From: a virus
Lineage: Duplodnaviria; Heunggongvirae; Uroviricota; Caudoviricetes
Reading direction: 5' to 3' (one strand)
DNA: 64,000 nt
IMG/VR virus record: IMGVR_UViG_3300029935_000001
Location: 64,001-128,000 of that record
Part shown: piece after piece, positions 20,102 through 24,897 of the stretch
Layout of the letters: the number at the start of each line of letters is the position of its first letter
How positions within the stretch are numbered: position 1 is the stretch's first letter
Program-made: the position numbers and the translations under genes
The notes under the pieces: generated by a model
Told to the model about the DNA's origin: nothing
Seen by the model: the letters and a program-made list of their open reading frames with translations, nothing else
Database searches by the model: none

Positions 20102-20400
20102 TAAATTCCCAATGCCTTTTTAAGTGTTTCGATTTTTGGCACCCACAATTGAGTGCCTTCGACGAAATCCAGTAACGGATTAATCAATACATTCGGGTTC
20201 CGCACTGCGAATACCCACCAAAGCCTGCTGTCGCTGTATAAGTCATACGCAAGTAGGTCTGGTCTCAGGTGGTAAGTCCGATCCAACATAATCACTGCGT
20301 CGTCATCGAGTGCCGGAAACGACCTTTGATCCCAAACTTCTAAATAGCCCGCCGAGTCAACCTTTGTTTTAAAATACGGACTTTGTGGCGCAAAATTCAT
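20101..20400 (-). CDS. Baseplate wedge protein, gp53/LysM-like
   Basis: Contains RPDLLAYDLYSDSRLWWVFAVRNP...P..DF..G..L.VP, the gp53-type motif. Confidence 0.8.
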   Translation of the reverse strand: MNFAPQSPYFKTKVDSAGYLEVWDQRSFPALDDDAVIMLDRTYHLRPDLLAYDLYSDSRLWWVFAVRNPNVLINPLLDFVEGTQLWVPKIETLKKALGI

Positions 20401-21368
20401 TATATAAACCCTCGAGTAATAAGTTCTCCGGATGCGTACTTTTTGAGACTAAAATCAGTTGACATTTGGTGCCGGCTCATCATTGGCAGCAGGGTGAGCG
20501 TGATTTCCAGTTTAGTAGGCACATACGATGCTCCTACACTCCCGGCAGTAATCGAGTTACTTGCTGCTTTTTTGCCCCCGGGCAAAATCCCAAGACGTTC
20601 GAGTCTCGATAACGTTGCCGACAATGGATTAGTGCGACGGCGGTTTGTATCCACTGCCGGGCCCGTCGGCGCTGAAATCGTCCCGGGCTCAGTTCGAACA
20701 TAGTTCACATCCGACGGCAGTAAGTAGTTAAAGTCTTTAATTACCACCGGTACGCGATTGTACTGGTGTTGCCCGTGCGCGGAGAAAAACAACACCGGCG
20801 GTGGGGTTCCGCGTTCGTAATCTTGTCCGTAAAACATCTTAGACGCTGATTTGAAAAAATGTATCGCTGCTAACACGTACTTAGCTTCGGCATTATCTTG
20901 CGCTGTAAACGTGGCCTGAAGCTGTATCTCACCGGGGTTTGATCCTTGATAATGGTACCCGTTCCAGTTTGAATACGGTAACGTAGTAGTCGAGTAGTTT
21001 GCGTGGTGTATTGTATCAATTTGCGGCGTATACGGAAAAATCACTCCATTGGTTTCGCGCAACGGAGCCAAAATCCCAGGCTGGCTTGCGTTATACAAAT
21101 AATCAGCATCCGGAGCTAACTGTAATCGTGCGCGCCAATCGCTGGCTGCTGTTGCTGTGAGGTCAACGGTTTGCACCGCAGATTTATTTGGCAAGTTAGC
21201 AATAAAGTCGCCCATCGGGTCCGAGCTTGTTTGGGCCCGGGTGAGGTCTACTGTTGCAACGTTTTGAACAGGATCCGGCTGGCTAATTTGCCCGGATCCA
21301 GCTGAGGCTGTAATAAACGATTGTTGGTTGTTGGTAACTGGTGCCGGGGAGCTTATAAGCGTAGCCAT
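20400..21368 (-). CDS. Tail tube initiator / baseplate protein (gp48/gp54-like)
   Basis: VIFPYTP.I...H.ANY and GTPPPVLFF...G.....VPVVI..F...LP are tube-initiator-like. It is the first gene of the baseplate operon. Confidence 0.55.
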   Translation of the reverse strand: MATLISSPAPVTNNQQSFITASAGSGQISQPDPVQNVATVDLTRAQTSSDPMGDFIANLPNKSAVQTVDLTATAASDWRARLQLAPDADYLYNASQPGILAPLRETNGVIFPYTPQIDTIHHANYSTTTLPYSNWNGYHYQGSNPGEIQLQATFTAQDNAEAKYVLAAIHFFKSASKMFYGQDYERGTPPPVLFFSAHGQHQYNRVPVVIKDFNYLLPSDVNYVRTEPGTISAPTGPAVDTNRRRTNPLSATLSRLERLGILPGGKKAASNSITAGSVGASYVPTKLEITLTLLPMMSRHQMSTDFSLKKYASGELITRGFI

Positions 21369-21387: not shown

Positions 21388-21393
21388 TATTTA
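21388..21393 (-). promoter_or_regulatory. Late promoter for the baseplate operon
   Basis: GATAAATA on the minus strand, then an AAGGA Shine-Dalgarno and the ATG at 21368. Confidence 0.65.
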
Positions 21394-21432
21394 TCGGGGA
21401 GATCTATAGGTATTTTTCCTTTACCAAAACGT

Positions 21433-21460
21433 TTGACATTATAAAAAGCTATGCTACACT
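21433..21460 (+). promoter_or_regulatory. Sigma70-type (early/middle) promoter for the late sigma gene
   Basis: TTGACA (21433-21438), a 16-nt spacer containing an extended -10 TG, and TACACT (21455-21460), followed by an AAGGAG Shine-Dalgarno. Confidence 0.7.
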
Positions 21461-21485: not shown

Positions 21486-23306
21486 ATGGCCGCTAAAGTC
21501 AACTACCTAAACAACCGCGATCTTCTTAAAGAGATCCATCTTTCAAAAAACTCGTTCTGCACTTTCCGCGATCCTGTAAACGATCACCAATATGATGTTA
21601 TTGTAGAATCAGTAGCTGATATTCCCAGTTCGATTCCTACTGCGCAGCAAAACCGTGCCGACCGCATTAAACGAGCAACCGGTGAAGTGATAGAGCCATC
21701 GACTATTCCGCACACAGATTTGGTTTTTCGAGTAATCGAGTGGGAGCATATTCCGTTTGCTCCGCCTAAGGCCCCTAAGGCCAAGAAGAAAAAAATTGCC
21801 GAACTGTTTGATTTTGACGAAGAGCTCGACGACGATGAGGATTTTCCTCCTCTCGACGATGTTCACATTCGACTCAACTTTCCACCATTTTACCATTATC
21901 GCTTAAATGCAAGTGGCGAGCCGTTTATTGTGGGCAAGTCACACTGGAAGGGCACGCTCGAAGATGGCGAATTTTGCAGAACACATGGGTCAATTAACAA
22001 CAACTTAGCTCGTATGTTCCTCAAGCTGTGCGAACGCTACGCTACTCGGTCAAACTGGCGAGGGTATTGCGTCGACGACCAAACCGAAGCCCTTACAAAA
22101 CGCGGTTGGCTCGATGAATCTAAAATTACCACTGCTGATGAAATCTTATCGTTTAACGGCAATGAGATGGTCTGGTCGCCAATACGCTCTATTTTCCGAG
22201 ATGTGTATAACGGCAAAATGTTTAAGATGACATCGCGCGGGATCGACGCGCTAATGACCCCAGGGCACAAAATAGTAACCGACAAGGGCTTGACTAAAAT
22301 CGAGCACCTACTCGAGTCTGACCGAATCGTTATCATGGGCAAGGCACCTGAGTCACCCGAGACCGCAATATACAACGACGCGACCGTTGAGCTCGCCGGA
22401 TGGATTGTAACCGAAGGTAATTATCAGCCCAATAAACAAATAGTTACAATTTACCAAAACGAAGGCAGGTATGCTGATCGGATCCGCACCTGTCTAAATA
22501 CCTTAGGGTATGAGTATTCCGAAAGTAAATCGTTAAAATCCGAAAACATAGCCTTCTCAATTCGCCGCAAGCACTGGGGCGAGATCGTAGCATTGCTTCC
22601 AAACAAAAATCTAACCATGGAATTCTTGCTATCACTAACTTCTGCACAAAAAGAGTTGCTGTTATCGACTATGATCGACGGTGACGGGCACCGCGATGGA
22701 CTAAAAATGCGGTACACTCAGAAGAATAAAGAGCATATGAACATGTTCCAAGCTCTGTGCGCGCTAACTGGTCGCAAAGCCAACGTGAAATTCGTAGAGA
22801 ATAAGATGTCATTCGATAAACCAACCTCTTACTACACAGCGACTATCTTTACTGAGCGAGGAAATCATACCCGCGGTTCTTCGGTCGACCTGCACGGCGG
22901 TAAAAACAACGGTCGCAAGTCGCCCGGACAGGGGAAGTTTGCTCACCCTAATTTTCCCACAGTAGACTACACCGGAACTGTTTGGTGTCCCGAGACTGAT
23001 TACGGATGCTTCTTGGCTCGTCGCAATGGCATGCCATACCTAACTGGCAACACCTACAACGAAGAAATGAGAGGCCAAGCATTGCTCCAACTTGCTCAAG
23101 TTGGCTTACAGTTTGACGAATACAAATCACAAAACCCGTTTGCCTACTATACTACGGCTATTAAAAATTCGTTCACTCGCATTGTGAATTTAGAAAAGCG
23201 CAATCAAAACATTCGCGACGACATTCTCGAAATTAATGGTTTGAATCCAAGTTGGAGTCGGCAAAACTCTGCCGCAGGCGGTAGTCATAACTACGATTAT
23301 GACTGA
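21486..23306 (+). CDS. Late-transcription sigma factor (T4 gp55-like) interrupted by an intein; mature protein ~278 aa
   Basis: N-terminal NYLNNRDLLKEI. The spliced junction reads L.ERYATRSNWRGY/TYNEEMRGQALLQL..VGLQFDEYKSQNPFAYYT.AI.NSF.R....EK, a gp55-type core. It lies upstream of gp47/gp46. Confidence 0.8.
   Translation: MAAKVNYLNNRDLLKEIHLSKNSFCTFRDPVNDHQYDVIVESVADIPSSIPTAQQNRADRIKRATGEVIEPSTIPHTDLVFRVIEWEHIPFAPPKAPKAKKKKIAELFDFDEELDDDEDFPPLDDVHIRLNFPPFYHYRLNASGEPFIVGKSHWKGTLEDGEFCRTHGSINNNLARMFLKLCERYATRSNWRGYCVDDQTEALTKRGWLDESKITTADEILSFNGNEMVWSPIRSIFRDVYNGKMFKMTSRGIDALMTPGHKIVTDKGLTKIEHLLESDRIVIMGKAPESPETAIYNDATVELAGWIVTEGNYQPNKQIVTIYQNEGRYADRIRTCLNTLGYEYSESKSLKSENIAFSIRRKHWGEIVALLPNKNLTMEFLLSLTSAQKELLLSTMIDGDGHRDGLKMRYTQKNKEHMNMFQALCALTGRKANVKFVENKMSFDKPTSYYTATIFTERGNHTRGSSVDLHGGKNNGRKSPGQGKFAHPNFPTVDYTGTVWCPETDYGCFLARRNGMPYLTGNTYNEEMRGQALLQLAQVGLQFDEYKSQNPFAYYTTAIKNSFTRIVNLEKRNQNIRDDILEINGLNPSWSRQNSAAGGSHNYDYD
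22068..23051 (+). mobile_element. Intein with LAGLIDADG homing endonuclease, 328 aa
   Basis: Block A CVDDQTEALT, block B TPGH, LAGLIDADG motifs ELAGWIVTEG and LLSTMIDGDG, block F VWCPETDYGCF, C-terminal YLTGN and +1 Thr. Confidence 0.92.
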
Positions 23307-24897
23307 CTTAACTGCGTTGTCTGCGCACAAATACCTAACATTATCTAAGTTAGAGGAAGCTGATACCAATGGCTTACTCACACCTTTCAAAGTGTTAGGT
23401 ATTTCAAACCCACGGCAATTGTTATATCATTACACACAACAATTATTTTCTATCCCACAATGTCCGTGCGGCAATAAGCTTGAGTGGCACGCAGACCGGC
23501 GGCGCTATCGAGCTTATTGCTCTAAAAAATGTACCGCAACCTATTCTCAACAAAAAGCTAAGCTAACTAATATTGAAAAATATGGTGCGTCTCGCTTTTC
23601 ACAGACTGCCGAATTTCGAGACAAAATTAAAAAAACTTCATTACAAAAGTTTGGCACAGAGCACTATAGCCAAACCGCCGAGTGGGTTTCTCGAACTGCT
23701 GCCACAAATCAATATCGCTTCGGAGTTGATCGCCCAGCACAGAATTCAGCCATCGCTGAGCGCACAAAGCAAACAAACATTGCGCGTTATGGTAGCGCGG
23801 CGCCTGCAGGCTCTGCTCAAATTATTCAAAAAATAAAACAAACAAACTTACAAACGCGTGGCGTCGACAACCCCAGCAAAGCTCATTACTCTGCCGACGC
23901 TCTTGAGTTTTTAACTAACCTTGAATTATTCGCTTCAGAGTGTGCTCAGTTATCTGTAGCAGATTTGGCAAACAAATACCAGATATCAGTTAAACCAATA
24001 TACGACCGCATTAACGCGTTAGAACTTTCTATTCCAAAAAACCCGTCGCGGCTTGAAACCGAAATTGCTAGCTACATATCTAGCATATACAACGGCCCAT
24101 TGTCGCAAAACGTTCGACATTTAATTACTCCGTATCAACTTGACTTACTCCTTCCAGACTTGAACATCGGAATTGAGTGTAACGGCAGCTACTGGCACAG
24201 CGAGCTAAACGGCCGTGATCGTTTATACCACATTAACAAAACCAAACGATTAGCCGAAAAAAACATACGCCTTATTCACATTTGGGAACATCAGTGGGCA
24301 AATCAGAGACCTATTGTTGAGTCTATGCTTTCCACTGCGGTCGGGCAGAATCATCGGATTTACGCACGGGACTGCCAAGTTAAAAAAATCTCGCCTGCTG
24401 CTAGCCGGGAGTTTTTATCACAAACCCACCTCCAAGGGTCTGCTGCTGCTACAGTCCACTATGGACTCTTTTGGCAAAACAAGCTTGTTTCGGTGATGTC
24501 ATTTGGGCAAGCCCGGTTTAACAAACAATACCAATGGGAGTTGATACGGTTTGCAAGCAAACTACACACCACTGTTGTTGGAGGGGCTTCTAAATTGTTT
24601 CGCCGTTTTATTCGAGATTTTTCTCCGACTACTGTATTATCGTACTGCGACCTTTCGTTTTCTGCTGGTAACTTATACCAAAAACTCGGGTTTGAATTTT
24701 CTCACAACAGCAACCCTAATTATTTTTACACTGCAAATTACAAAGATTTTTTTTCGCGGCACAAATTTCAAAAACACCGATTAAAAAATCTAATAGAAAA
24801 TTTCAATCCAGCACTATCCGAATGGGAAAATATGAAAGCTAACGGATGGGATAGAATTTGGGATTGCGGCAACGGAGTTTACATTTTTAAATTATGA
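23299..24897 (+). CDS. Free-standing putative homing endonuclease (Cys-rich N-terminus, (K/R)YG repeats, PD-(D/E)XK/Vsr-like nuclease, GNAT/Mom-like C-terminal domain)
   Basis: CPCG...YCSKKC, repeated TN..(K/R)(Y/F)G, QLDLLLPDLNIGIECNGSYWH and WELIRFA...VGGASKL...SYCD. It overlaps both neighbours and is paralogous to 39761..41632. Confidence 0.7.
   Translation: MTDLTALSAHKYLTLSKLEEADTNGLLTPFKVLGISNPRQLLYHYTQQLFSIPQCPCGNKLEWHADRRRYRAYCSKKCTATYSQQKAKLTNIEKYGASRFSQTAEFRDKIKKTSLQKFGTEHYSQTAEWVSRTAATNQYRFGVDRPAQNSAIAERTKQTNIARYGSAAPAGSAQIIQKIKQTNLQTRGVDNPSKAHYSADALEFLTNLELFASECAQLSVADLANKYQISVKPIYDRINALELSIPKNPSRLETEIASYISSIYNGPLSQNVRHLITPYQLDLLLPDLNIGIECNGSYWHSELNGRDRLYHINKTKRLAEKNIRLIHIWEHQWANQRPIVESMLSTAVGQNHRIYARDCQVKKISPAASREFLSQTHLQGSAAATVHYGLFWQNKLVSVMSFGQARFNKQYQWELIRFASKLHTTVVGGASKLFRRFIRDFSPTTVLSYCDLSFSAGNLYQKLGFEFSHNSNPNYFYTANYKDFFSRHKFQKHRLKNLIENFNPALSEWENMKANGWDRIWDCGNGVYIFKL

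Follow-up and report, generated by a model that had tools for sequence, protein, structure and literature searches.

Inteins are known mainly in proteins of replication, repair, nucleotide metabolism and packaging, and the sites into which they home usually lie in highly conserved stretches of genes. The late sigma factor gp55 of phage T4 has as its partners the co-activator gp33 and the sliding clamp gp45, the latter contacted through a C-terminal clamp-binding motif. In the cryo-electron microscopy structure of T4 gp55, residues E70, D74, and E77 of helix H3 contact the beta-prime clamp helices of RNA polymerase (PMC7892883). Here, we describe a gp55-type late sigma factor gene that is interrupted by an intein, located in a stretch of 64,000 nucleotides (positions 64,001 to 128,000 of the IMG/VR record IMGVR_UViG_3300029935_000001), in the following referred to as the window. 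The record is 323,407 bp long with direct terminal repeats and a CheckV completeness of 100%, and its source is an uncultured jumbo phage. The interrupted open reading frame (ORF) occupies positions 21486..23306 of the window (+ strand), encodes 606 aa and is open throughout. The insert is very probably an ordinary, recently mobile and selfish intein of the class 1 type, which carries a LAGLIDADG endonuclease and resides in the only gp55 of the phage.

The PDB assignments of both the host protein and the intein rest on profile and fold searches, as a single-sequence search of the PDB gave marginal matches only (gp55, E = 0.09; a mini-intein, E = 0.31). In searches against the PHROGs database, the whole 606-aa protein matched phrog_12791 ("sigma factor for late transcription"; E = 6e-66) and phrog_234 (E = 4e-17). 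The N-extein (aa 1-194, 22.5 kDa; positions 21486..22067, +), with NWRGY as its last residues, matched phrog_12791 with E = 1.1e-39. The C-extein (aa 523-606, 9.7 kDa; positions 23052..23306 including the stop codon, +) starts with TYNEEM and matched phrog_12791 and phrog_234 with E = 6e-26 and E = 8e-14, respectively. As the N-extein follows the phrog_12791 profile through position 189 and the C-extein resumes the match at position 190, the 328-aa insertion is clean. A profile built from 112 homologues retrieved T4 gp55 from the PDB (7d7c chain F, E = 9e-6). For P0121, the closest intein-less allele, an AlphaFold model (mean pLDDT 82.8) likewise had this chain as its best Foldseek match in the PDB (7d7c_F, TMt 0.51), followed by many sigma-A region 2 chains. 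By profile as well as by fold, the exteins form a sigma-region-2-like helical domain.

In the alignment with T4 gp55, the C-extein covers T4 residues 68-116, and the N-terminus of the N-extein can also be aligned. The intein is inserted at the point equivalent to T4 Y63/T64, immediately ahead of helix H3. E527 of the window protein, four residues past the insertion, aligns with T4 E70, and the positions of T4 D74 and E77 are occupied by Gln and Leu. The C-terminal tail of the gp55 homologues is poorly conserved. The window protein belongs to a long type of gp55, having an extra N-terminal module of ~150 aa relative to T4 (N-extein aa ~25-165). This module is confidently modelled, with a long helix and a small beta sheet in addition to a disordered acidic/basic linker (aa 99-118); in a fold search of the PDB, no match reached beyond the sigma core.

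The intein spans positions 22068..23051 (+) and consists of a Hint splicing domain with an inserted LAGLIDADG endonuclease, as judged from homologues, AlphaFold and Foldseek. A sequence-only reading of this stretch had placed a full intein with two LAGLIDADG motifs at 22068-23051, splitting the NWRGY/TYNEEM core of a gp55-like protein, and our results agree with it in each of these respects. The coordinates are correct to the base, with a translation that starts with CVDDQT, finishes with YLTGN after 328 aa, and continues with Thr; the junction codons are TAT followed by TGC at the N-terminal side and AAC followed by ACC at the C-terminal side. The profile junction at positions 189/190 and the exteins, which are sigma-like by profile search and fold, bear out the split core and the host protein, and the interrupted core is the most conserved stretch of the gp55 gene. 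The expected conversion of a ~69-kDa precursor into products of ~32 and ~37 kDa is arithmetically right, the calculated masses being 69.2 kDa for the precursor, 32.2 kDa for the joined exteins, and 37.1 kDa for the intein.

Residue conservation was counted in 120 homologues of precursor length together with the window protein (n = 121). Cys1 is invariant (121/121), as are both T and H of the TPGH motif in splicing block B (T64..H67; positions 22257..22268, +). Splicing blocks F and G (VWCPETDYGCFLARRNGMPYLTGN; positions 22980..23051, +) contain Cys307 and Asn328, both found in 121 of 121 sequences, and Gly327, found in all but one (120/121); in the AlphaFold model this region forms three beta strands, as expected. 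The residue following the intein (+1) is Thr in 117 sequences and Ser in the remaining four. Most of the intein has a pLDDT >90 in the AlphaFold model of the precursor, and Foldseek searches with the intein model retrieved the TliVMA, PhoVMA, PI-PfuI, and PI-SceI inteins (E = 4e-15 to 1e-7). The profile search also matched the Spl DnaX and AceL NrdHF mini-inteins. The architecture is not due to chance, since the sigma family is matched with E = 6e-66 and more than 120 clusters at 90% identity share the arrangement. By its residues, its clean insertion, and its fold, the insert is a genuine full intein of the class 1 type, for which splicing is predicted.

The penultimate His that is usual, but not obligatory, is replaced by the above-mentioned Gly327. 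Phage class 1 inteins often have no penultimate His, and the class 1 intein of mycobacteriophage Bethlehem gp51, which has a penultimate Gly, splices completely, whereas a His at this position sharply slowed splicing (PMC5050341). The missing His is therefore not disqualifying. Cys307 corresponds to position F:4, an assignment made by motif register only; class 1 inteins usually have Asp at this position. A class 3 intein was considered, with the block registers likewise set by motif, and rejected: the WCT triplet is lacking (B:12 being Ile, Leu, Met, or Phe and G:5 being Gly) and Cys1 is present, so that only the Cys at the F:4-equivalent position fits.

The endonuclease domain was identified as LAGLIDADG_3 (PF14528), with a score of 28.8 bits against a cut-off of 22.5 and the best stretch at intein aa 197-240. 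Both LAGLIDADG motifs of the window copy retain their acidic catalytic residue. Motif 1, LAGWIVTEG (positions 22392..22418, +), contains E116 (ELAGWIVTEG being intein aa 108-117), and E is found at this position in 111 of the 121 sequences, the rest having K, N, D, or V. Motif 2, LLSTMIDGDG (intein aa 198-207; positions 22659..22688, +), contains D206, with D in 113 of the 121. By fold, Foldseek related the domain to the free-standing endonucleases I-DmoI and I-Tsp061I (TM ~0.6 normalised to the target). The endonuclease of the window copy is probably active.

On these grounds, the following course of events may be proposed. The intein, which sits where helices H2 and H3 of the sigma-region-2-like domain are joined by a turn, would be translated as part of the 69-kDa precursor and would remove itself by an acyl shift at Cys1, transesterification to Thr+1, and cyclisation of Asn328. 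The exteins would thereby be joined into a 32-kDa sigma factor reading NWRGY-TYNEEM. In a mixed infection, the endonuclease would cut intein-less gp55 alleles, and repair would copy the intein into them. We infer that splicing takes place, constitutively and fast enough not to matter for the phage.

One could instead imagine that the insert no longer splices, having been domesticated, and that the mature sigma factor retains the 328-aa module as an additional domain for binding DNA. LAGLIDADG domains do bind DNA, and the extein helices still form around the insert in the AlphaFold model of the precursor. However, a retained domain would have no need of an invariant C1, TxxH, and N328 or of a +1 residue confined to Thr and Ser; moreover, empty alleles with exteins 93-95% identical are common, and the insert adjoins the helix that binds RNA polymerase. 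We consider such a domesticated insert highly improbable.

The occupied site can be written as N-[W/F]-x-x-Y followed by C-[V/I]-D at the N-terminal junction, and T-G-N followed by [T/S]-[Y/F] at the C-terminal one, and in this form is found in hundreds of metagenomic phages. The occupied gp55 proteins are of two kinds, the long jumbo-phage type and a short T4-like/cyanophage type. Among the best 150 representatives at the 50% clustering level, 22 were long and occupied, 27 were short and occupied, and 32 were gp55 proteins with a partial intein match only.

The sequence-only reading had proposed a search of gp55 homologues for empty and occupied alleles of the site, and both were found, the empty ones being far more numerous. 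Short intein-less homologues numbered at least 7,656, compared to 499 of precursor length (E <= 1e-5), and in IMG/VR more than 600 empty loci were observed against 34 occupied ones. Among the best 120 short homologues, 114 read exactly NWRGYTYNEEM. The inteins of the window and of P0002 are 99% identical, as opposed to 69% for the exteins, and the identity falls abruptly at both junctions. The closest extein relatives of these two alleles are themselves empty, namely P0121 for the window (93% identical; 91-93% when the N-extein is compared) and P0126 for P0002 (95%). Conversely, P0041 and P0054, with exteins that are 98% identical and inteins that are only 59% identical, mark independent invasions. 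We take the sequence comparisons to show recent horizontal transfer of the intein between divergent gp55 lineages. On an extein tree of 238 tips, sampled from the top 120 hits of each kind, occupancy required ~20 parsimony changes as compared to ~80 with shuffled labels, and eight well-supported small clades mix occupied and empty alleles.

The pattern was also seen at the DNA level. Jukes-Cantor dN/dS was unusable for nearly all pairs due to synonymous saturation, and raw nonsynonymous (pN) and synonymous (pS) differences were instead obtained from two unsaturated pairs of IMG/VR loci, which are more distant than P0001 and P0002 (occupied) and P0121 and P0126 (empty). For the exteins, pS was 0.68 in the pair L004/L005 and 0.78 in the pair L007/L013; for the endonuclease domain it was 0.07 and 0.18, respectively, so that the intein has a synonymous divergence 4-10x below that of the exteins. 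The pN/pS of the endonuclease domain in these pairs was ~0.07-0.13, which supports the view that the endonuclease is kept under purifying selection. The GC content of the intein and its GC content at third codon positions (GC3) showed no deviation from the gp55 gene or from the window, so composition offers no hint of a foreign origin. Taken together, the abundant empty alleles, the intein swaps, the low pS of the intein, and the pN/pS bear the marks of an active homing cycle. The sequence-only reading had left room both for a timer or a redox or temperature gate and for an intein that is simply parasitic, and the recent horizontal transfer, the abundant empty alleles, and the purifying selection on the endonuclease favor the parasitic alternative.

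Three points weigh against a purely selfish class 1 element. The occupied allele persists in deep gp55 lineages, being found in long gp55 of the jumbo-phage type as well as in short gp55 of the cyanophage type, and some benefit to the phage would fit this as well; such persistence is, on the other hand, also compatible with a long-lived homing cycle. The resolution of the extein tree, built from top hits only, is limited, and the 20 gain or loss events are therefore approximate. Finally, the chemistry may not follow the textbook class 1 route in every detail, since the penultimate His is missing and an invariant Cys replaces Asp at the F:4-equivalent position.

The motif TAAATA was found in 17 of 39 upstream regions of the window, compared to 1.1 expected, and 25 of its 49 copies lie in the non-coding 22% of the window. 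In the form [A/G]TAAATA, it precedes ~20 of the 43 called genes, mostly 21-37 nt ahead of the ATG, the gene calls behind these counts being crude. One example is located at 21388-21395 (- strand), before the virion gene 20400-21368 that adjoins gp55. The exact T4 octamer TATAAATA was not enriched in the window (three found, 3.0 expected). The T4 late promoter TATAAATA and the TAAATA-containing motif ahead of many genes in the window are similar, and [A/G]TAAATA is likely a late-promoter core shorter than that of T4. No TAAATA was found in the upstream region of the gp55 gene itself. The best site there in a consensus scan (10/12 matches) is a sigma-70-like promoter candidate at positions 21433..21460 (+), composed of TTGACA, a 16-nt spacer, and TACACT, with TG before the second hexamer.

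As gp55 is present in a single copy in a genome rated 100% complete by CheckV, and as [A/G]TAAATA precedes ~20 of 43 genes, late transcription should need splicing. The sequence-only reading had made all TAAATA-driven transcription depend on a splicing step, which is a sound inference given the single copy, the distribution of the motif, and the sigma-70-like promoter of gp55. The unspliced precursor would plausibly be inactive, because a 37-kDa domain is placed at the turn beside the clamp-helix-binding H3, four residues before E527. An essential gene could also be disabled by 1 kb of inserted sequence, and for this reason we considered whether the interrupted gp55 is a non-functional remnant, with another factor driving late transcription. 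We found nothing in favor of a dead gene. The 606-codon frame is open, the exteins are as conserved as those of empty alleles, the genome, by the same rating complete, holds no second gp55 copy, and the promoter-like [A/G]TAAATA is found upstream of many genes; a dead gene is accordingly extremely improbable.

The same dependence raises the question of conditional splicing, in which the intein of jumbo phages and cyanophages would have been kept, or put to use, as a gate that controls the early-to-late switch after translation. Such a gate could possibly act through a reversible Cys1-Cys307 disulfide under oxidation, a slow temperature-dependent step, or another cue. Late transcription must wait for the splicing of a single-copy gp55, and the insertion four residues before E527, the equivalent of T4 E70, plausibly leaves the precursor inactive. 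Neither Cys1 nor the Cys at the F:4-equivalent position varies among the homologues; other inteins are regulated by disulfide traps that involve their catalytic cysteines (PMC6195587), and in phage inteins the penultimate residue tunes how fast splicing proceeds (PMC5050341). These points are circumstantial, and none of the results supports a timer or gate. Most close relatives are intein-less, the frequent changes in occupancy and the intein swaps are the pattern of a parasite rather than of a fixed regulator, and the catalytic conservation is accounted for by the fact that an essential host protein has to be restored. We thus find conditional splicing unlikely, and prefer the ordinary selfish intein.

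The gp55 gene is flanked by virion structural genes on one side and by an SbcD/gp47-like gene on the other. The order gp55, SbcD/gp47-like gene, and recombination endonuclease subunit is the same in the Pseudomonas phage PA5oct and in Synechococcus phage B23. A megablast search with the gp55 gene against deposited phages gave no match, and the nearest isolates are ~40-50% identical at the protein level. Between gp55 and the SbcD/gp47-like gene, a gene for a free-standing homing endonuclease of 532 aa was identified at 23299-24897 (+), overlapping the gp55 stop by 8 nt. It matched phrog_3339 (E = 5e-125) and contains the Pfam domain DUF7487 and a Vsr-like REase_MTES_1575 domain. Of 114 related loci, L007 alone has a homologue (35% identity). 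Most relatives have a gp55-gp47 spacer of 50-180 nt, but in ~30 it measures 0.6-2.4 kb, and because of these expansions the junction looks like a hot spot for insertions. The gp55 locus is thus host to two independent mobile elements, the intein and the free-standing endonuclease gene.

The large terminase, encoded outside the window, is divided between two ORFs (L120:496-2505, +, corresponding to G000:C1:153888-155897). The first ORF encodes 306 aa with a Terminase_6N domain and ends in a 31-aa intein N-fragment starting with CLTGNS. The second, located six bases downstream, encodes 360 aa, in which an intein C-fragment of ~110 aa ending in ILVSN is followed by Cys and then by Terminase_6C. 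The atypically split inteins AceL-TerL and GOS-TerL have short N-fragments of 25-37 aa (PMC11766414), and from its sequence the split terminase looks like an intein of this kind. If so, the phage would also need trans-splicing for packaging.

In the papers found, gp55 has no published description as an intein host, the type of element itself being known. A search of the full-text literature, in which most subscription journals are not covered, returned no paper on an intein hosted by gp55 or by another sigma factor, and a survey of mycobacteriophage inteins does not mention a sigma factor (PMC5050341). A transcription initiation factor as host lengthens the list of proteins known to carry inteins, and occupied alleles are a common sight in jumbo phages that have not been cultured. 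In this phage, the entire program of late (virion) genes would hang on one autocatalytic protein reaction, making the locus a natural system for asking whether the rate of splicing ever limits or times a developmental switch. In addition, the many pairs of empty and occupied alleles are ready substrates for a new LAGLIDADG enzyme, and the penultimate Gly, Thr+1, and Cys at the F:4-equivalent position form an unusual catalytic combination for splicing studies.

In 50,697 deposited phage records, this gp55 intein was found only in Synechococcus phages B3 and B23 (E <= 1e-8). The intein of b23_0289 (QGT54902.1) is ~43% identical to that of the window and is located at the homologous site, where NY precedes CVD and LTGN precedes SY, with gp47 and gp46 following downstream. 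The gp55 of B3 and B23 is of the short T4 type, without the N-terminal extension of ~150 aa, its exteins are far more diverged, and its +1 residue is Ser. In its record, b23_0289 is a "hypothetical protein" to which the note "phage T4-like gp55" is attached, with no annotation of the intein, and as it is unannotated in both genomes, the gp55 intein appears to be missed by annotation pipelines. Some metagenomic gp55 homologues reach 750-980 aa (P0323, P0245, P0250, P0251, P0268, and P0280). P0323 has an apparent second intein, starting with CLSGET after FAFYTQIAKH, at a site in the helix equivalent to NPFAYYTTAIKN of the window protein, from which this second intein is absent.

Outside gp55, the closest inteins are found in metagenomic ParB_N-DUF4417 and AAA_25 helicase-like proteins (P0301, P0310, P0314, P0326, and P0345), with 42-44% identity over the whole intein, and as these reside in other host genes, the intein lineage has passed from one insertion site to another. 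Inteins of actinobacteriophages (Gordonia phages GordTnk2, Belphegor, and Woes; Mycobacterium phages ShiLan and Lilac) are 24-31% identical over all 328 aa and are inserted at other sites, in portal, TerL, DNA methylase, and DNA polymerase proteins. The Bethlehem gp51 intein shares the penultimate Gly and class 1 with that of the window, but resides in another host protein and at another site (PMC5050341). The structurally characterized inteins TliVMA and PhoVMA (7qsu, 7qss, and 7qst), PI-PfuI (1dq3), and PI-SceI (1vde and 1ef0) have the same combination of a Hint domain and an inserted two-motif LAGLIDADG endonuclease. They are from archaeal or yeast hosts, where TliVMA, PhoVMA, and PI-SceI reside in the VMA ATPase, and share 8-18% identity with the window intein, which is set apart from them by its penultimate Gly and by the Cys at the F:4-equivalent position. 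T4 gp55 (PDB 7D7C and 7D7D, chain F; PMC7892883) resembles the window exteins in its sigma-region-2-like helices, but has neither the intein nor the large N-terminal extension, with its beta-rich insert, of the window protein.

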